DNA from: a phage
Reading direction: 5' to 3' (one strand)
Sequence record: PZ386957.1
Length of the DNA stretch: 64,000 nt
The notes beneath the pieces were generated by a model, which searched no databases, had not been told where the DNA came from, and saw nothing but the letters and a program-made list of their open reading frames with translations. The position numbers and the translations under genes were made by a program. The number at the start of each line of letters is the position of its first letter. The first letter of the stretch is position 1. Shown here piece by piece: positions 4,609 to 45,334 of this stretch.

Positions 4609-5679
4609 TTATGCTAACATATCTTCGATTTCTTTGTCAACTGCTTCGTCGCTGATCACTTGCCCCAGCTTATAATGGTCATTGATTGCTTCGTTAAACT
4701 TATCGTTTGTCAGAAGTGGTTTCCAGAACTCAATGCTGTTGGTTTCTTTAGCACGGAACTTTCGTTCTTCGGTTTCCATCTCTCCGGTCTCAGTATTCAG
4801 GATGGAACGAGAATACCAGCCGTTTGACGGTTTCACTACCCAACCTAACTCTACAGCCAATTCTAGCAAACCGGAATAAGGATCGATACCACCGCTAAAG
4901 GTTACGCTAATCGGGAACTTAGATTTTTCTTTAACGGTTCGTGATTTTTCCGCATTCAGGATAAAATCATAACCAGTAATTTCGGTTCCTTCTTTCTGTT
5001 GACGACGACCGATAATAAAGCATTCGTTGGCGCTGTACATTGCGCCCGTACCACCGGACATAACGGTCTTGCTAAACATTTCTTGCGTTTCGTATGTGTG
5101 GTTAATCGCAATGCACGGAATGTCATTCATAGTCAGATATGGTGTAATCATACGGAACAAGCCTTTAAGTGCTTTAGCTCGCGTCATATCCTGCGCCGAT
5201 TTCTCATTAATCGCGTCTTCAACTTCTTTTTTGCTTGCTAAGTTACCGATTGAGTCAATAAAGATGATCACTTTATCTTCACGGGTAATTTGCTCAAGCT
5301 GGTTCATGATCTCAAATTTAAGTTCTTCGATGTTCTTGATTGGAACGTGTACCACGCGATCAGGATCTACACCCATAGATGACAGATATGCGGAAGTAAT
5401 ACCAAACTCAGAATCAAAGAACAAACAAGCCGCATCAGGATTCTGTTTCATGTATGCACTAACACAAGTTAATCCCATGTTTGATTTAAAGTGCTTAGAT
5501 GGACCAGCAAAGAAAATCAGACCAGATTGAAAGCCTTTTTTAAGATCACCAGAAAACGCAATATTCAGCATCGGGATCTTAGTGCGAGTATTTGTTTTTT
5601 CGTTAAAGAAGCTGGATTTAGACAGTACCGCAGTAGTTTTCAGGGTAGAGTTCTTTTTCAGTTTTTCCAGTACAGACAT
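4609..5679 (-). CDS. uvsX: UvsX recombinase (RecA/Rad51 family)
   Basis: 356 aa; near-colinear with recalled T4 UvsX (FFNEK..RTKIPM.NIA.SG, GPSK.FKSN, IAINHTYETQEMFSKTVM.GGTG). Confidence 0.92.
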   Translation of the reverse strand: MSVLEKLKKNSTLKTTAVLSKSSFFNEKTNTRTKIPMLNIAFSGDLKKGFQSGLIFFAGPSKHFKSNMGLTCVSAYMKQNPDAACLFFDSEFGITSAYLSSMGVDPDRVVHVPIKNIEELKFEIMNQLEQITREDKVIIFIDSIGNLASKKEVEDAINEKSAQDMTRAKALKGLFRMITPYLTMNDIPCIAINHTYETQEMFSKTVMSGGTGAMYSANECFIIGRRQQKEGTEITGYDFILNAEKSRTVKEKSKFPISVTFSGGIDPYSGLLELAVELGWVVKPSNGWYSRSILNTETGEMETEERKFRAKETNSIEFWKPLLTNDKFNEAINDHYKLGQVISDEAVDKEIEDMLA

Positions 5680-35410: not shown

Positions 35411-36229
35411 TTACACGCGAGCACCGTAGATCGTGCCAACTTTAGTCCATGTTGGGGCATTACCAGTAACAGCTTTACCAGCAGCACCACCAGGCCACGG
35501 AACACCAGCGCGACCAGTACCATCATACCATGAGTCGTTAGCCTTAGCACCTGCTTGACCAGCGTCACCACCGTTACCAGCATAATATATATTACCGTTA
35601 TACGATCCTCTACCCGGCGCGGTATATGTAGCAGCGGTTGACCCTATTTCCATGTTGGAATATGCACCAGCCGCACCATAAGGACGACCACCACCACCAC
35701 CCATTGACAACCCAATGATCGGATAATATGAGTAATAAGCACCGCCACCGCCACCGCCACCGCCAGCGATGACACCATTATTTGTGATGCGTAGACGTGT
35801 ACCGATACCATTATTGATAGCAGTCCCGCCAGCTTGTCCAGGACCAGTGCTGGAATTAGTACCGCCATCACCACCCTTACCACCACGACCCCAAACATGG
35901 ACACCTGGGTTAATGTTTAATGTAATATACTCATTAGCAAGATCGCTAGGAAAATCGAGACACGGAACACTAGCAGAATGAGAAACAATATCCCCGGTAA
36001 TGGTAATTACTACCGGAGTAGACCCGTGTGATCTTAGATAACTAATCAAAGTATCTTTATTGTAACTATGGTTAGACCCAATACTATAATAAACCTCTTT
36101 AGAACGTCCCACCATCGCACTCATCCAAGCCGGACGACCTAAGCGTACAGCTTCCATTGCGGCACTCATCCACCGTTGGCCTGTTTCATTAACGGCAGAT
36201 GATCCTACCCATCCAGAAGATATTGCCAT
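35411..36229 (-). CDS. glycine-rich protein of unknown function
   Basis: 272 aa; C-terminal half dominated by poly-Gly and GGxGG tracts (GGGGGGGGAYYSYY, MGGGGGRPYG, GNGGDAGQAG); locally GC-rich; hairpin terminator downstream. Confidence 0.6.
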   Translation of the reverse strand: MAISSGWVGSSAVNETGQRWMSAAMEAVRLGRPAWMSAMVGRSKEVYYSIGSNHSYNKDTLISYLRSHGSTPVVITITGDIVSHSASVPCLDFPSDLANEYITLNINPGVHVWGRGGKGGDGGTNSSTGPGQAGGTAINNGIGTRLRITNNGVIAGGGGGGGGAYYSYYPIIGLSMGGGGGRPYGAAGAYSNMEIGSTAATYTAPGRGSYNGNIYYAGNGGDAGQAGAKANDSWYDGTGRAGVPWPGGAAGKAVTGNAPTWTKVGTIYGARV

Positions 36230-37863: not shown

Positions 37864-40011
37864 TTATTCTCGTCCATTTGTATAGTAGTGTTTGAATCGC
37901 CCATAGCCAGTTTCAATAGACATATCTTTCTGTCGGACAATCGCCCAATAGCCATTGCATGAATCTTGCAAATACAGATCCTTACCTTTTAGGAACTCGT
38001 TAAAGATCGTAATCTGCCAATCATAATAGACGGCATCAGCGAGACTATCCATCCAACCATGTGGATCATCCATCAGTTCGACAAGCTCATCGATAACCCA
38101 ATATGGACACGGGCTAAATTTACCTTTACTAAAATCATTGAACAAGGTAACAAGTTTAACTTCCGGTCGCGGTTCATCCGGCTGCACAGGTCGTTTATTA
38201 ACCACAACCTGTACATATTTCGTATACCCGATGATTTCGCCGGAGTCAAGAGTATCGTTATTGTTCTTATCTGCATAAGCCACAAAACGATAAACACCGG
38301 AATCATTTATTGTTGCATTAGCTTTACGGTAAATCGGCACGCGAGAATCAGCAATAGGTAATTTAACACCAGCTTTGCTAAACTCATAGGTAGGTACATA
38401 ATCAGCCGGAGGCTTCAACATGGTAGCCTCAAGAACAAGCGGTTCACCTTCCGTAATCTGTACCGGATGCGGACCATCAAATTCCATATTAGGCACTACC
38501 TCAACATGGTAGGTAGCGCGTGCTGCAATATCGTAATCGGTATGCGCACTATATGGATCTTTACTCGGACTATCGCGGTATTCATGCGACCAGATACCGT
38601 TATGGTCTCGGTCTGCGGAATCAGTGATCTTATACTCTTTCGCTTCAATAGGCAAATCTGCGACTTTAACATCATTTTTCAGAATTACTAATGAACGCGT
38701 TTGAGTCGGATCACCGCTTGCTGGCGGTTCTGGATCGACGATCTTAATTACAATCGGTTCACCAATCTCAATATTACGATAATCATATTCTTTATCGTAA
38801 ATGTCAAGCATACGGCGGTCATAGAACAAAGGACGTCCGGTCGGTGTTCTCTGCGGATCATCATCACGCGCGGGAGCCACCAACAGTTGAAGTGCTACGC
38901 TATCGTCATATTGCAATTCATTAAGCGTAATGCGGTCATATCCCGGATCACCGTATTTCTTGCTTTGGAGTTGCTTACCGCCTAGCATCCACGTAAAGTA
39001 AACATTATTTGCAAGCATACCATAATGGCGGTTCCATGAGTTATCCGCTGGTAATACTGGCATATCAAAGTTTACTTCCGATCCAGAAGGATAACGAAAT
39101 TCGATTGCTGCAAAGTCATTACGGAAAAATTCGTTTTCCTTAACTTTGACAGTAAATCGGTGTCGCTGCCCTTCAATGAATGATTCACCAGCACCAGGTC
39201 CATTAACCACTTTATAGGAGCGAACGCAAGCTACATATTCACCTGCATCATTTTCGGTAGCATGTTTGGTTGCATAGAGTGTTTTGTTGGTAGACTCATA
39301 AACAAGAGTACCGTCGCCACGCTCTAAGCGATACCTTACAATGGTATGCTCTGCGTCATTAGGCGCATCATCTTCTACCGTGAAATAAGCTGGTGCATAT
39401 TTCTGGACATTGAATACTGCGGGATTTTCCTTAATATCGGCAACAAACGGATAAACAAATTTAACGTCGCCGTGTTCGTCGCTCAATTCCATTCGGTAAT
39501 TACCGGAAAATTCAGGCCATGCAAATTTTGCAATTTTAAATTCACGATGGTCTAATCCCAGATCACCATCAATGGAATCAACGAGGCCATTATTATAATA
39601 CAGGTCAACCGAAATATTAGCCGGAATATTACTACGGAAAACAATTTTTGCTTTAATTTCATCACCAATATCAAAAGACGTTGGAGGATGAACATATTCG
39701 ACAAAGACATTATCGAATAAACTAAAGGTAAAGTTTTCCGTGCCGATATCTACGGATTCGCCAGAAAAATTTTCATCATCTTGCGCATAACCACGAAGGT
39801 TAACAGACCATCCGGTTTTATCCTCTTCTTTCACTGAATCCAATACATAGGAAGGAGTTGCAGTAGTCGCAATGACCTTATTGTCTTTCTTCCACGTAAA
39901 ACCCTTTTTAGGTTTAGTTGGTTCAGGGGATTCCCCAGCAAGGGAACAAGCGAAAGTATGAGGAAGCCAAATGGTAGTATTAACGCTAGTATCTTTATTT
40001 TCTACTGGCAT
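37864..40011 (-). CDS. large protein of unknown function with Ig-like-looking repeats
   Basis: 715 aa; repeated D.G.Y.C/F-type motifs (ENDAGEYVACVRS, INDSGVYRFVAYA) suggestive of Ig-like beta-sandwich domains; no signal peptide or catalytic motif recognised. Confidence 0.65.
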   Translation of the reverse strand: MPVENKDTSVNTTIWLPHTFACSLAGESPEPTKPKKGFTWKKDNKVIATTATPSYVLDSVKEEDKTGWSVNLRGYAQDDENFSGESVDIGTENFTFSLFDNVFVEYVHPPTSFDIGDEIKAKIVFRSNIPANISVDLYYNNGLVDSIDGDLGLDHREFKIAKFAWPEFSGNYRMELSDEHGDVKFVYPFVADIKENPAVFNVQKYAPAYFTVEDDAPNDAEHTIVRYRLERGDGTLVYESTNKTLYATKHATENDAGEYVACVRSYKVVNGPGAGESFIEGQRHRFTVKVKENEFFRNDFAAIEFRYPSGSEVNFDMPVLPADNSWNRHYGMLANNVYFTWMLGGKQLQSKKYGDPGYDRITLNELQYDDSVALQLLVAPARDDDPQRTPTGRPLFYDRRMLDIYDKEYDYRNIEIGEPIVIKIVDPEPPASGDPTQTRSLVILKNDVKVADLPIEAKEYKITDSADRDHNGIWSHEYRDSPSKDPYSAHTDYDIAARATYHVEVVPNMEFDGPHPVQITEGEPLVLEATMLKPPADYVPTYEFSKAGVKLPIADSRVPIYRKANATINDSGVYRFVAYADKNNNDTLDSGEIIGYTKYVQVVVNKRPVQPDEPRPEVKLVTLFNDFSKGKFSPCPYWVIDELVELMDDPHGWMDSLADAVYYDWQITIFNEFLKGKDLYLQDSCNGYWAIVRQKDMSIETGYGRFKHYYTNGRE

Positions 40012-40032: not shown

Positions 40033-40431
40033 CTAAGCCAGCTTAGTGAGTTTATAGATGGTTTTAAAGCATAGAACTTTAATATCGTCTAAAACGCTCT
40101 GTAGAGAGCTATCAACATCATTATAAATCTCACTTGCCATTTGCGCTAATTCCTGCAAATAGGCAACTTCGCTAATCTCCTTTCGGACGACCAACGTCGG
40201 TTGATATCTTCCGGTAATACCGATATTAGTTTCCGTGAAAGTATCAACCAATTCTTGCATTTCAAGATAGAACTCTTCTAGCGCCTTATGTTTTGCGTAA
40301 GACCCCGGACCAGTTACCCCAAAATGCGCAGAATGCATATAAGTAACGCTCATTAGGCATTCACCAATAAAGCGGTCCACATTATTAGCCTTTCCTTCAT
40401 CGGAAGTTTTTCTAAATTCGCTGAATTTCAA
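40033..40431 (-). CDS. hypothetical protein
   Basis: 132 aa ORF. Confidence 0.5.
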   Translation of the reverse strand: MKFSEFRKTSDEGKANNVDRFIGECLMSVTYMHSAHFGVTGPGSYAKHKALEEFYLEMQELVDTFTETNIGITGRYQPTLVVRKEISEVAYLQELAQMASEIYNDVDSSLQSVLDDIKVLCFKTIYKLTKLA

Positions 40432-40721
40432 TTTCGTCGATTCTCCACATTATAAGCAACTACAAATTGCTTCGCAGCATATTCGCCCATCATAAAACAT
40501 TGTCTTGCATCCATACACCTACTACGTGCATATGTTTTCATTAAATGCTCATGAAATTTTTGGCTAGTTTCAACGGATGGTTGGATCTTGCTTATATAGA
40601 CAATCATCGCACCATCAAAATAATCGGTAAAATCACCGACTGGATTATTTTGGTCGGCACTTACACTACCGACTGCCATTAGACAAAATGCTGCGGTTAA
40701 AGTTTTACGAATAAATGACAT
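40428..40721 (-). CDS. small secreted/periplasmic protein
   Basis: 97 aa; N-terminal signal-peptide-like sequence MSFIRKTLTAAFCLMAVGSVSA; TATAAATA-like element upstream. Confidence 0.5.
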   Translation of the reverse strand: MSFIRKTLTAAFCLMAVGSVSADQNNPVGDFTDYFDGAMIVYISKIQPSVETSQKFHEHLMKTYARSRCMDARQCFMMGEYAAKQFVVAYNVENRRN

Positions 40722-40783: not shown

Positions 40784-41380
40784 TTATTGGGTAGTACCAT
40801 CAGTAAAATGTTTACGACAAACAGAAACATATTTATCCTCGGCACCGACTTCTATTTGAGCACCATCACGGATAACGTTTCCATCTTTATCAACACGAAG
40901 GACCATTGTCGCTTTCTTGCCACAATGACAGATACCCTTCATTTCGACCAGTTTATCAGCCAATGCCATTAATGCCGCAGATCCTTCAAATAAATTTCCC
41001 TGAAAGTCGGTGCGAAGTCCATAGCACAAAACAGGGATATTGGCATCATCAACCAGTGCACATAAGCCTAAAACATGTTCTTTAGTCATAAATTGGGCTT
41101 CATCCACAAATACAGCATCAGGACGCCAGCGTTCCGGTCTACGCTTACCTAGTGATTCACGGTACACAAGGTCGAAAAGATCATCAGATTTAGTGAATGT
41201 GATCGCTGGAGCACTTAGACCAATCCGTGAAACAACTTCACTTTCTGAATCTCGATTATCAATCGCTGGTTTAAGAATTAATACTCGCATATCACGTTCT
41301 GTATAGTTATAAGCACTTTGTAACAGGGAAGTAGACTTACCAGCGTTCATAGATGCATAGTAGAAATATAGTTGCGCCAT
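40784..41380 (-). CDS. tk: thymidine kinase
   Basis: 198 aa; P-loop AQLYFYYASMNAGKST, FVDEAQF, C-terminal zinc-binding Cys pairs. Confidence 0.92.
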   Translation of the reverse strand: MAQLYFYYASMNAGKSTSLLQSAYNYTERDMRVLILKPAIDNRDSESEVVSRIGLSAPAITFTKSDDLFDLVYRESLGKRRPERWRPDAVFVDEAQFMTKEHVLGLCALVDDANIPVLCYGLRTDFQGNLFEGSAALMALADKLVEMKGICHCGKKATMVLRVDKDGNVIRDGAQIEVGAEDKYVSVCRKHFTDGTTQ

Positions 41381-41673
41381 TAATTAATCTCCAAAAATCC
41401 AGCAAGACCTAAACCGATATAAGTCCAGATACCAATGAAAAAGATGTTAATACTCATGGCAAGGATAAACCCTTTTAGCGTTTTAGGATACCCAACCCAA
41501 TATTCCCGACCATCTTCTAACCGGATCAGTTTATTGCCTTGCGAGTCCATATCAACTACAACATGTTTATTTCGAGATTGCAATAGATATTGGTTTACAA
41601 TCTCTACACCAGCCATAATACAAATAACGAAAAGAAAAGTCCACACAACAAGATTAATGATAGTCTCAAGCAT
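41380..41673 (-). CDS. small membrane protein
   Basis: 97 aa; two hydrophobic helices. Confidence 0.45.
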   Translation of the reverse strand: MLETIINLVVWTFLFVICIMAGVEIVNQYLLQSRNKHVVVDMDSQGNKLIRLEDGREYWVGYPKTLKGFILAMSINIFFIGIWTYIGLGLAGFLEIN

Positions 41674-41920
41674 TTTCTATCACCTCAACCCAATCCGGTA
41701 GTTCTTGAAAGACTCCATCGCCTTCATGATGTTTACAGCCTTTATTGGTGCAATACATCCACCAATCCCACATTCCCCACGGTAAACGCTGCATATCGTC
41801 GTTGCAGCAAGTGAAGATAATAGGCCAACCACATCTAACACATCGGCAGTTTTCCTTCATGTGAGCGCTATTAGGCTTCATATTCCACCACCACAATATT
41901 GATATCCGGCGTAAAATCAT
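41666..41920 (-). CDS. Cys/Trp-rich small protein, start uncertain
   Basis: 84 aa ORF; CRCVRCGW and CTNKGCKHH motifs. Confidence 0.4.
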   Translation of the reverse strand: MILRRISILWWWNMKPNSAHMKENCRCVRCGWPIIFTCCNDDMQRLPWGMWDWWMYCTNKGCKHHEGDGVFQELPDWVEVIENA

Positions 41921-42326
41921 TAATGATTTCTTCTACGCATTCCCATTCTAGGCCGCCAATCCCACAACCAATTTTAGGAATATAGAACGGCTTAACAGTA
42001 CCTTCAAATGCGAAGTTAAGTTGTTCGAATCCACGGATGATAGCGGAATATTCAGCATTTGGTCCTGGACGGAATTGCGTATAAAGATTAATACCCATCC
42101 AGTTATAACCATTAACGGTATGATGCCAAACATTAAACTCGCCTAGCTTACTAGCCGTTCCTCTCGGTGTCTTTTTGTCAGTAGCCAATGCTTGTGGGAA
42201 CTCTTTTGCGATCTTTGCAGCAATACCAGCGCCCATAGTATGAAAACAATTACAACCATGAATCAAATGACCGTTTCCTTGTTTAAACAGGGCGATGAGA
42301 TCGCCCTTTACAGTATCAATAATCAT
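41871..42326 (-). CDS. macro-domain-like protein (possible ADP-ribose binding/hydrolase)
   Basis: 151 aa; HGCNCFHTMGAGIAAKI motif recalled as typical of phage macro-like domains; assignment from memory only. Confidence 0.5.
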   Translation of the reverse strand: MIIDTVKGDLIALFKQGNGHLIHGCNCFHTMGAGIAAKIAKEFPQALATDKKTPRGTASKLGEFNVWHHTVNGYNWMGINLYTQFRPGPNAEYSAIIRGFEQLNFAFEGTVKPFYIPKIGCGIGGLEWECVEEIINDFTPDINIVVVEYEA

Positions 42327-42341
42327 AATATAAACCTCTCA

Positions 42342-42701
42342 TTAGTCACGGGAAGACAACCCAGCCATAAAACGGCTTAAAAGCGTGTCACGATAAGCAA
42401 AGCATAATTGCTTATCAGGGGCAGTATCACACAGGTTGCGTTTTGTTTTAGCAAAGCTGGCAATACTCAGATCCCATGCTCGATTTTTTCGTTTTTCGTC
42501 TCGGCCTTGTTTGTAGGCTTCGTCGAGTTCAAGTGCGATAAAATCGCTACACATGTTATCATCATCACAGAAGGTTTTAATGATCTTTTTGTTGATCTCA
42601 AATCCTTTGTATTCGAATTTTGGATAAGGTCGCTCATTACTAGCAAGCGCACCAGCAGAGAACATCATAGCAATCATAGCAATTATTGTCAACTTTTTCA
42701 T
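42342..42701 (-). CDS. secreted/periplasmic protein
   Basis: 119 aa; signal peptide MKKLTIIAMIAMMFSAGALASN. Confidence 0.5.
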   Translation of the reverse strand: MKKLTIIAMIAMMFSAGALASNERPYPKFEYKGFEINKKIIKTFCDDDNMCSDFIALELDEAYKQGRDEKRKNRAWDLSIASFAKTKRNLCDTAPDKQLCFAYRDTLLSRFMAGLSSRD

Positions 42702-42708
42702 ATATTCC

Positions 42709-43299
42709 TCAATAGCGTTTAGTTTTAAGGATGCCTTTACTCTTTAAATGGTTAGCCTTTTTTAGTACATCATCAGCATAACCCAATCCGGCTTTATAGT
42801 TCCATCCAGCATTGTAAGAAGCTAGCGCGAGTCGGATATTACCGTTTCGAACATCCAGCCAGTATGCTAACTCATCCATCGCGTAGAATGCAGAAACCTC
42901 GCGATTCATGATAAAGTTAATTGTCTGGCGATCACTCATTTTAACACCGCGCTTTGCATTTTTCGCTTTCACCGTTTTAAGGTAATTTTGAAATAATCCA
43001 TAAGCATGATGATTTTTCTTTGGTGCTAAGTTTGCACCCGCGCTTGATTCTTGCCATGCGATACCCGCCAGGATGTGACCTAAACCCTTTCCGTTATAGC
43101 GAATATTCGGATGGTCATTTTTCAACTTACCGCTTTTCTCGAATTGTTCGCCGTATTGATAGGCGAAATGTAAATTATCTAGTTGGTGTGCTGTAAAGTT
43201 GTCTATCGGCGCTTTTTTGATCGGTGCGCTAGTCGATGCGTGTGCAGCACCAACGGCTAGTGACAGACTCAATACTATCGCTTTTAGAACTTTTAACAT
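42709..43299 (-). CDS. secreted lytic transglycosylase-like protein (SLT domain)
   Basis: 196 aa; signal peptide; SLT-like catalytic AWQESS and GLFQ, AYN motifs. Confidence 0.7.
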   Translation of the reverse strand: MLKVLKAIVLSLSLAVGAAHASTSAPIKKAPIDNFTAHQLDNLHFAYQYGEQFEKSGKLKNDHPNIRYNGKGLGHILAGIAWQESSAGANLAPKKNHHAYGLFQNYLKTVKAKNAKRGVKMSDRQTINFIMNREVSAFYAMDELAYWLDVRNGNIRLALASYNAGWNYKAGLGYADDVLKKANHLKSKGILKTKRY

Positions 43300-43384: not shown

Positions 43385-43807
43385 TTATTGGTCCACTTTC
43401 AAAACAACCGCCGACATTTTACCAGCCAGTCGTTTTGGATTCTCTATAATCATTCGGCAGCATAGACCGTGATACGGTTTACCCTCTTCGATTAGATCTA
43501 CTGTCATCCCGATCCACATGTTATTGTCAGTGATTTCTAATCGATTAGGTCGGTCTTCCATTTTCAGGAAGTCGAAGATCTCTGGCAAACGAGTTTCAAT
43601 CTTATTGAATAGTTCCATCGTTTTATGTTCATCAATATGACGATCTGTTAGTCGATCAATCATGTGTGGACTAAAACGAATGAAAATATATTCACCGTAA
43701 CCATCATTCAAGCATTTTTCTTTAATCTGCGCGTTAGTCTTACGCATTTCGGTTTCGAAGAATCTGCGCAGCTTGCTACGGCGAACGTGTACGTTAATTG
43801 TTTCCAT
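43385..43807 (-). CDS. regB: RegB site-specific endoribonuclease
   Basis: ORF track 43385..43849; start refined to ATG 43807 (METINVHVRRSKLRR vs T4 MTINTEVFIRRNKLRR); conserved RLEITD and CRM.I.N.RL.GK. Confidence 0.85.
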   Translation of the reverse strand: METINVHVRRSKLRRFFETEMRKTNAQIKEKCLNDGYGEYIFIRFSPHMIDRLTDRHIDEHKTMELFNKIETRLPEIFDFLKMEDRPNRLEITDNNMWIGMTVDLIEEGKPYHGLCCRMIIENPKRLAGKMSAVVLKVDQ

Positions 43808-43808
43808 T

Positions 43809-44120
43809 TTATTCTCCTTTCTTAAACAAATTGTGAAGCCAGTATACAAACGGGATTTCTTTAAACTTGAACTTACCCATATTGAGCATATTCACGCCGA
43901 CACTTAAATCCCATAATTCTTTTGGGGTGATAATATGCCATTGATGGTCATGAAGATAAACACAACCGTGGCCTTTTGCAATAATAACATCAACCCAAAT
44001 GCCTTGTTTTGTTCTAACTTTTGCGGTAATGCCATCCCCATTATCAATGGCAGCATAAGGTTTAAACGCTTCGAAATATCGGCTTCCGTCGTAATTTGTA
44101 TAAATCAAAATTTCTTTCAT
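43809..44120 (-). CDS. hypothetical protein
   Basis: 103 aa; GGGAGA RBS; promoter at 44148-44177. Confidence 0.5.
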   Translation of the reverse strand: MKEILIYTNYDGSRYFEAFKPYAAIDNGDGITAKVRTKQGIWVDVIIAKGHGCVYLHDHQWHIITPKELWDLSVGVNMLNMGKFKFKEIPFVYWLHNLFKKGE

Positions 44121-44635: not shown

Positions 44636-45334
44636 CTAACCACGTGTATAGTGTTCCAGAACAACGGTCAGATGAATATCTTCTAATAAATCTTTCCAAA
44701 AGTCAACATATGGTTCTTCCGGCATACCGTTTTTCTTTGCCTCTTCACGCGCGAGTTTAACACGCTCGTAGAGATCTTTCAATTCTTCCCGCACATCATC
44801 AAAGGTTCTTTCGCCCATCTTACATGCTAAGATAGAATCACGTTGAGATAGCGGGAATTGTAGATCACCTGTCTGATAGATTTCAAGTAGCTGATAACCA
44901 ACACGCAGAGCATGAGAAAGATCTTTCCAGTTACTGAAATACTTTTCAGATTTGGCTACCTGTTTCTTGAGATAACCAGACAAACCCCACATCCCAACAT
45001 GATAGAATTTATCGCGATGTGTTCGGATGTATTCCCATTCTCTGGAGGATTCAATCAACATGTTACTAGGCGCGTGCACCATGTCAATAGCGCCAATATC
45101 ACCTTTACATGCCAGATTGATAAACCGTTTTAGACTGAACATATTAACGTCAATATCGTCTTTGGTGTTCTTGATACCTTGACCGCTAGTGCTTTGGTCA
45201 TAGTGTTCTTTCATCGATCCTAAGATAATTTCTTTAGCAGTCGGAACAAAGATACCACGATAATCTTTATCGGAATTTTCAGTATTAAGGCCGTATAAGT
45301 GAGATCCGAAGACCATTTTAACCATTGTATGCAT
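44636..45334 (-). CDS. Pol-beta-superfamily nucleotidyltransferase-like protein
   Basis: 232 aa; N-terminal GS-x10-DKD (GSHLYGLNTENSDKDYRG) plus downstream acidic DIDVNM, matching the minimal nucleotidyltransferase signature. Confidence 0.6.
   Translation of the reverse strand: MHTMVKMVFGSHLYGLNTENSDKDYRGIFVPTAKEIILGSMKEHYDQSTSGQGIKNTKDDIDVNMFSLKRFINLACKGDIGAIDMVHAPSNMLIESSREWEYIRTHRDKFYHVGMWGLSGYLKKQVAKSEKYFSNWKDLSHALRVGYQLLEIYQTGDLQFPLSQRDSILACKMGERTFDDVREELKDLYERVKLAREEAKKNGMPEEPYVDFWKDLLEDIHLTVVLEHYTRG

Follow-up and report, generated by a model that had tools for sequence, protein, structure and literature searches.

A Krischvirus orthologue of T4 tk.4 (adfM) encodes a stand-alone, glutamine-type macrodomain with a probable role against DarTG2

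The stretch of DNA analysed here (the window) comprises 64,000 nucleotides of the phage sequence record PZ386957.1 and is a Krischvirus (RB49/JSE-like) genome; the 2.4 kb around the gene described below are 92-95% identical to Krischvirus RB49, JSE, Phi1 and GEC-3S, with LF73P4 being the closest. At positions 41871-42326 a sequence-only reading had placed a macro-domain-like protein within the tk-regB accessory region. This interval is the exact extent of a 151-codon open reading frame (ORF) on the minus strand, and Pfam locates thymidine kinase and RegB on either side of it, as that reading had claimed. All of the neighbouring genes detected by the Pfam scan, from rI through RegB, are on the minus strand, and the features of the locus are as follows:

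40428..40721, minus strand: rI antiholin (Pfam scan of neighbours)
40784..41380, minus strand: tk, thymidine kinase, the downstream synteny anchor (Pfam TK, 5.8e-52)
Between tk and the 71-aa zinc-binding ORF, minus strand: ORF of 97 aa (neighbour scan)
41666..41881, minus strand: phage zinc-binding protein ORF, 71 aa (Pfam PF23895, 3.3e-32)
41871..42326, minus strand: tk.4/adfM-like gene, an ATG-to-TAA ORF of 151 codons for a single-domain macrodomain protein of 151 aa
42335..42340, minus strand: Shine-Dalgarno sequence GAGAGG, read from the sequence, 8 nt 5' of the tk.4-like ATG (42326..42324) and directly past the vs stop
42342..42701, minus strand: vs, valyl-tRNA synthetase modifier homologue, immediately upstream of the macrodomain gene (ORF, and JSE/T4 annotation of the syntenic gene)
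42709..43299, minus strand: Vs.1, SLT domain (Pfam scan of neighbours)
43385..43849, minus strand: RegB (Pfam scan of neighbours)

The stop codon of the macrodomain gene shares bases with the ATG of the next ORF (ATGAAGCCTAA), that of the zinc-binding protein, and this overlap suggests translational coupling. In JSE an additional 195-nt ORF (4882-5076) lies between tk.4 and the small zinc-binding ORF; it is absent from the window (41881..41920). Promoter and terminator scans around the macrodomain gene returned counts that are not clearly above the shuffled expectation, and no transcription unit is therefore defined from them. There is one sigma-70-like site at 42664..42692 on the minus strand (TTGACA, a 17-nt spacer and TATGAT, 11/12 matches, with an extended-10 TG), which lies inside the first vs codons and, the DNA being AT-rich, may have arisen by chance; transcripts from it would include tk.4 without the vs start codon. 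The N-terminus of Vs resembles a Sec signal peptide both in the window (MKKLTIIAMIAMMFSAGALA) and in T4 (MTKILVLCIGLISFSASASA, 4887-5234), which is odd for a supposed modifier of a cytoplasmic enzyme.

The macro-domain assignment of the sequence-only reading is upheld by a Pfam profile, by a sequence search of PDB chains and by a fold search with a confident model. With the Pfam Macro profile (PF01661), whose gathering cutoff is 22 bits, the protein scores 27.4 bits and spans the profile completely (profile positions 1-118/118), while PHROG 335 ('phosphatase') is matched at E=1e-61. Together with the number of phage records that carry homologues, given below, these scores exceed by far what chance would produce. 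Among PDB chains, the protein retrieves macrodomains of one class only, comprising SCO6735, 5M3I (the macrodomain of M. tuberculosis DarG, deposited under the name 'RNase III inhibitor'), Poa1p from yeast, BT1257 and human TARG1/OARD1, and a profile built from 53 homologues improves these matches to 8e-16 through 6e-10. The modelled structure has the three-layer alpha/beta/alpha arrangement of the macro fold. When structural neighbours are compared, members of its own class score 18.5 (M. tuberculosis DarG), 18.5 (BT1257), 17.9 (Poa1p), 17.3 (TARG1) and 17.2 (T. africanus DarTG), against 14.4 for the best macrodomain outside the TARG1/DarG group, the HCoV-229E X-domain. The nearest structural and sequence neighbours thus all belong to the ALC1/TARG1-like class (TARG1, DarG, SCO6735 and Poa1p), set apart from other classes. 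Neither profile nor structure searches found a fold other than macro, so the outcome that the sequence-only reading had named as its refutation, assignment to a different fold, did not arise.

Within this class the protein resembles the catalytic portion of DarG. DarG is a protein of ~330-340 aa with a macrodomain and a C-terminal DarT-binding domain, whereas the window protein has 151 aa and is macro only. The NCBIfam antitoxin_DarG model aligns over positions 2-144/338 (52 bits against a 250-bit cutoff) and the PADLOC DarG model over positions 3-144/329 (E=5e-15). Because both models align through their N-terminal macro half only, the window protein is, as judged from its sequence, a stand-alone ALC1/TARG1/DarG-like macrodomain, a counterpart of the enzymatic half of DarG that has no DarT-binding domain. 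Membership of DarG in full was considered and ruled out, since the macro half alone aligns and there is no adjacent darT, the neighbours being vs and the zinc-binding ORF.

The window protein was aligned with its JSE counterpart, T4 Tk.4, SCO6735, BT1257, TARG1, Mtb DarG and PhiKZ gp104 using MAFFT, giving an alignment that is consistent with HMMER pairwise comparisons, and conservation was counted over 121 sequences (the window protein and 120 homologues, down to ~40% identity). At the sequence level, both glycine-rich loops of the ADP-ribose cleft and the adenine-contacting N-terminal Asp are present and conserved in the family, with D9 of the window protein aligning with TARG1 D20. The predicted active-site segments and residues are:

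42210..42260, minus strand: loop 1, H23-G-C-N26-C-F-H-T-M-G32-A-G34-I-A-A-K-I, putative first Gly-rich ADP-ribose/phosphate-binding loop
42072..42089, minus strand: N80-L-Y-T-Q84-F motif, predicted beta-strand end, with Q84 at the catalytic-Lys position
41952..41978, minus strand: loop 2, P117-K-I-G-C-G-I-G124-G125, putative second Gly-rich diphosphate-binding loop
H23: equivalent to SCO6735 H24, TARG1 H32 and Poa1p H23
N26: equivalent to PhiKZ AdfM N23, SCO6735 N27 and the DarG Asn
Q84: equivalent to SCO6735 Q85 and the BT1257 Gln; Lys in TARG1 (K84), DarG (K80) and PhiKZ gp104
G124: occupies the position of TARG1 D125

The peptide that had been quoted as resembling an ADP-ribose-binding loop (HGCNCFHTMGAGIAAKI, residues 23-39) is the first of these loops and aligns with TARG1, DarG, SCO6735, Poa1p and PhiKZ gp104. 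Three of its residues, G24, N26 and G34, are invariant (121/121); elsewhere D50, N80 and Y82 are each conserved in 120 of the 121 sequences and P117, G120 and G122 in 119, while Q84 is kept in 118 and H23 in 116. The catalytic lysine of the TARG1/DarG class is absent, with Gln84 in its place, and Q84 aligns with the essential glutamine of SCO6735, Q85. Given that Q84 is near-invariant (118/121), the Tk.4 family is by its sequence a glutamine-type member of the TARG1/DarG class, unlike the lysine-type PhiKZ AdfM.

Comparison with the characterised members of the class clarifies what is shared and what is not. Human TARG1/OARD1 (4J5R/4J5S), which reverses thymine- and uracil-linked ADP-ribosylation, resembles the model of the window protein in fold (TM 0.77), loop architecture and size at 27% identity, but its catalytic dyad K84/D125 is replaced by Q84/G124. 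Likewise, the catalytic Lys80 of the DarG macrodomains (M. tuberculosis 5M3I, T. aquaticus 5M31/5M3E and T. africanus 7OMU) is Gln in the window protein. The glutamine is shared with two bacterial proteins of ~22-26% identity, SCO6735 from Streptomyces coelicolor (PDB 5E3B) and Bacteroides BT1257 (2FG1/2AFC); in the alignment, the 6-7-residue 'mobile loop' inserted after the Gln of these proteins, which in SCO6735 is linked to its high DNA activity, is absent from the window protein, as are SCO6735 Lys34 and Lys89, implicated in DNA binding.

The gene order tk ... tk.4, vs, vs.1, regB on one strand is the same in the window as in T4, T6 and JSE, and the syntenic gene in those phages is tk.4, labelled 'Tk.4; contains A1pp phosphatase motif' or 'phosphatase' in GenBank. 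The window protein and T4 Tk.4 share 43% identity (66% positives, 151/155 residues, E=1e-45). Both are single macro domains that align end to end (151 and 155 aa), both are encoded on the same strand in the interval from tk to vs, and their H-G-C-N-C-F-H-T-M-G and N-L-Y-T-Q-F motifs are identical, whereas 57% of residues differ and loop 2 contains G-A-G-I-G-K in T4 as against G-C-G-I-G-G in the window. A tblastn search with T4 Tk.4 finds this locus alone, indicating a single copy, and searches with PhiKZ gp104 and TARG1 likewise revealed no second macro-domain paralogue in the window. Sequence identity and synteny together identify the gene as the orthologue of T4 tk.4 (adfM) in Krischvirus.

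Homologues are present in 2,728 of 50,697 phage records (tblastn, E<=1e-5), the carriers being phages of Escherichia, Klebsiella, Salmonella, Pseudomonas, Vibrio and Acinetobacter, and this count fits the previous estimate that ~41% of myoviruses encode macro domains (PMC9503650). The window protein is 66-67% identical to macro proteins of rV5-like phages (~135-140 kb), which is closer than its relationship to T4 Tk.4 (43%) and suggests exchange between phage groups. A chromosomal homologue of 43% identity was also observed in Pelagimonas phthalicica (SOAP01000002.1, 6001-6459; P0078), where it lies alone among housekeeping genes, so its context yields no functional clue; it has no DarT-like neighbour and resembles the stand-alone arrangement of SCO6735.

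When compared with the JSE allele, 57 of the 95 nucleotides that differ occupy the third position of their codon, and codons 121-130, which cover most of loop 2 (residues 117-125), carry seven synonymous and no non-synonymous changes, which together indicate that the frame is under purifying selection. The differences are unevenly distributed: codons 1-40 contain only 3 and codons 41-151 contain 92, many of them synonymous, such that protein identity to JSE is 100% over residues 1-45, 66% over residues 46-113 and 89% over residues 114-151. This mosaic pattern suggests a recombination junction within the gene. Among the Krischvirus alleles, the active site is fixed but surface patches on either side of it vary (residues 48-79 and 94-113), and these patches might reflect surface diversification in an arms race with toxin variants.

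Published work provides a function for the T4 gene. T4 lacking both adfA and adfN stays resistant to DarTG2, from which its authors predicted another factor (PMC11825919). A preprint reports that tk.4 was the sole significant T4 match under DarTG2 in HIDEN-SEQ and that a clean tk.4 knockout makes T4 sensitive to DarTG2, a DarTG2-specific phenotype; the gene was renamed adfM, and removal of ADP-ribose from DNA was proposed for its product on genetic evidence (bioRxiv 10.1101/2025.11.20.689424). These genetics agree with the suggestion of the sequence-only reading that the protein might reverse ADP-ribosylation imposed by host toxins or defence systems, and the gene, being the long-annotated tk.4 with a published counter-defence function in T4, is already known rather than new. 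The anti-DarTG2 role itself has been shown for T4 only. Literature searches combining DarTG with Krischvirus or RB49 found nothing relevant, and the CmdTAC paper contains macrodomains in its reference list alone, with no link to Tk.4.

The biochemistry comes from other members of the class. The name AdfM, for anti-DarT factor Macrodomain, was independently given to PhiKZ gp104 (Cell Rep 2026), which is reported to free a TNTC oligonucleotide of DarT2-placed ADP-ribose in vitro and to rescue the toxicity of DarT2, with activity reduced in the N23A mutant (PMC13309987). Like the window protein, gp104 belongs to the DarG/TARG1-like class and is an orphan macrodomain of a phage, and its N23 is kept as N26. 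Unlike the window protein, to which it is 27% identical, gp104 has a DarG-type lysine (P-T-K as against Y-T-Q), and it is imported into the phage nucleus, a structure that T4-like phages do not have; the PhiKZ and T4-type AdfM proteins appear to be separate recruitments under one name. SCO6735, in turn, cleaves ADP-ribose linked to thymidine, leaves that linked to guanosine intact, and shields E. coli from DarT (PMC9411070). It has no TARG1/DarG catalytic residues, and its Gln85 is essential, as both Q85A and Q85E abolish activity; nevertheless, it was the most active dT-ADPr hydrolase among the three enzymes compared (PMC9411070).

When these lines of evidence are combined, we consider it fairly likely that the window protein is an ADP-ribose eraser with the substrate and role of T4 AdfM, neutralising DarTG2. 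The fold, class, orthology to T4 tk.4, synteny and active-site conservation are observed; the substrate and role are extrapolated, with reasonable but not high confidence, from T4 genetics and from the biochemistry of SCO6735 and PhiKZ gp104. According to this proposal, the protein would be made during infection from the tk-regB transcription unit, with no partner toxin carried by the phage, and its two glycine-rich loops would form the binding site for the ADP-ribose moiety. Its substrate would be ADP-ribose placed by host DarT2 on thymidine (in TNTC motifs) of single-stranded phage DNA, and hydrolysis of the thymine N3-ribose (base-ribose) bond would restore replicable and transcribable DNA, thereby neutralising the abortive DarTG2 defence. 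In its chemistry the protein probably resembles SCO6735, with Gln84 positioning the substrate and a water molecule in place of the catalytic lysine of DarG, TARG1 and PhiKZ AdfM. For T4 Tk.4, too, the enzymatic activity is an assumption, since the evidence from T4 consists of genetics alone, reported in a preprint. Points that count against the proposed function are the 43% identity to T4 Tk.4 and the absence of both the DarG/TARG1 lysine and the SCO6735 mobile loop.

The strongest competitor to this proposal concerns the substrate. TARG1, DarG and SCO6735 can, in addition, remove ADP-ribose that is linked to uracil in RNA (PMC13036486), and because enzymes of this class act on proteins as well as on RNA-linked ADP-ribose, DNA need not be the sole or main target. 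The window protein could therefore be mainly a protein or RNA de-ADP-ribosylase that erases the marks of other host toxins or defences or tunes the modifications made by the phage's own Alt, ModA and ModB, in which case reversal of DarT2 modification would be no more than a side activity. The two closest characterised proteins, SCO6735 and TARG1, hydrolyse ADP-ribosylated PARP1 E988Q and uracil-linked RNA ADP-ribose (PMC9411070, PMC13036486), the related phage JSE encodes a ModB annotated as an RNA-polymerase ADP-ribosylase, and the presence of macro domains in ~41% of myoviruses (PMC9503650) exceeds what a single defence system might account for. We nevertheless regard this as unlikely, since in the T4 preprint tk.4 is the sole significant match under DarTG2 and the knockout phenotype is DarTG2-specific, and insertions in adfN, another anti-defence gene, are tolerated on plain K-12 (bioRxiv 10.1101/2025.11.20.689424); moreover, the Tk.4 family has no member with a demonstrated protein or RNA substrate.

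It is somewhat less probable still that the protein works on small molecules, as a Poa1p-like ADP-ribose-1''-phosphate phosphatase or an O-acetyl-ADP-ribose deacetylase, and so removes by-products that RNA repair or sirtuin-type defences generate from NAD. It is Poa1p-type activity that underlies the database label 'phosphatase', but such labels are homology transfers and not tests. Yeast Poa1p (6LFQ, an ADP-ribose-1''-phosphate phosphatase) differs from the window protein in having extra insertions (~166-180 residues) and a Ser at position 84, the conserved Gln of the family, and of the residues altered in its mutant structures H23 is conserved in the alignment while S30 becomes T30 and F152 becomes G124, a glycine. 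An enzyme of this kind would also leave the DarTG2-specific phenotype reported in the T4 preprint unexplained.

It is very improbable that the protein is non-catalytic for want of the lysine, whether as a stoichiometric inhibitor that binds DarT2 or as a reader or sponge for ADP-ribose: although Q84 and G124 replace the DarG/TARG1 Lys and TARG1 D125, and catalytically dead SCO6735 Q85A still inhibits DarT through interaction (PMC9411070), SCO6735 shares the Gln and yet is highly active, Q84, N26 and both glycine loops are near-invariant to ~40% identity, as an enzyme active site predicts, and the DarG C-terminal DarT-binding domain is not part of the window protein.

Assignment as a Tk.4-type eraser of DarT2 modification would mean that RB49-like phages carry the orphan-antitoxin counter-defence gene of T4, which helps to predict which phages escape DarTG2-carrying E. 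coli. Relative to the two AdfM papers, as far as their available text extends, the replacement of the catalytic Lys by Gln in T4-type AdfM is a modest addition for which SCO6735 is the precedent. With Gln at this position, the DarG mechanism and the inhibitor and mutant designs based on it (such as 'K-to-A dead' controls) should not be carried over to Tk.4-type proteins, for which Q84A and N26A would be the sensible control mutants. More speculatively, and with less than even confidence, Tk.4-type macrodomains (>2,700 phage genomes) may constitute a lysine-less, glutamine-dependent subclass that was recruited against DarT2 independently of PhiKZ AdfM, which would make these two mechanistically different erasers under one name; or DarT2-modified DNA may not be their main substrate, which could instead be, for example, uracil-linked ADP-ribose on RNA.

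An RlaP-family nucleotidyltransferase (RNA-repair pathway, DNA polymerase beta-like) is encoded at 44636..45334 on the minus strand, ~2 kb from the macrodomain gene, and likely corresponds to the gene that is annotated nrdC.11 in JSE. The gene for a Gp38-type tail-fibre adhesin (35411..36229, minus strand; Pfam GP38, 1.6e-70) lies in the early-gene region, distant from the tail-fibre module, and a JSE early-region gene 5' of rI, annotated 'tail fiber protein; host specificity', may be its equivalent. Just upstream of rI.-1/rI there is an ORF of 715 aa (37864..40011, minus strand) with no Pfam domain above cutoff and a weak Ig_2 match only, whose C-terminal third is ~26% identical to Hoc/whisker-like proteins of Klebsiella phages. 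Full-length homologues of this ORF (77-83% identity) occur in only 6 phage records, compared with 59 records that match the tk.4 region, and matches of any kind in 52, all annotated 'hypothetical protein'; it is a variable accessory gene.
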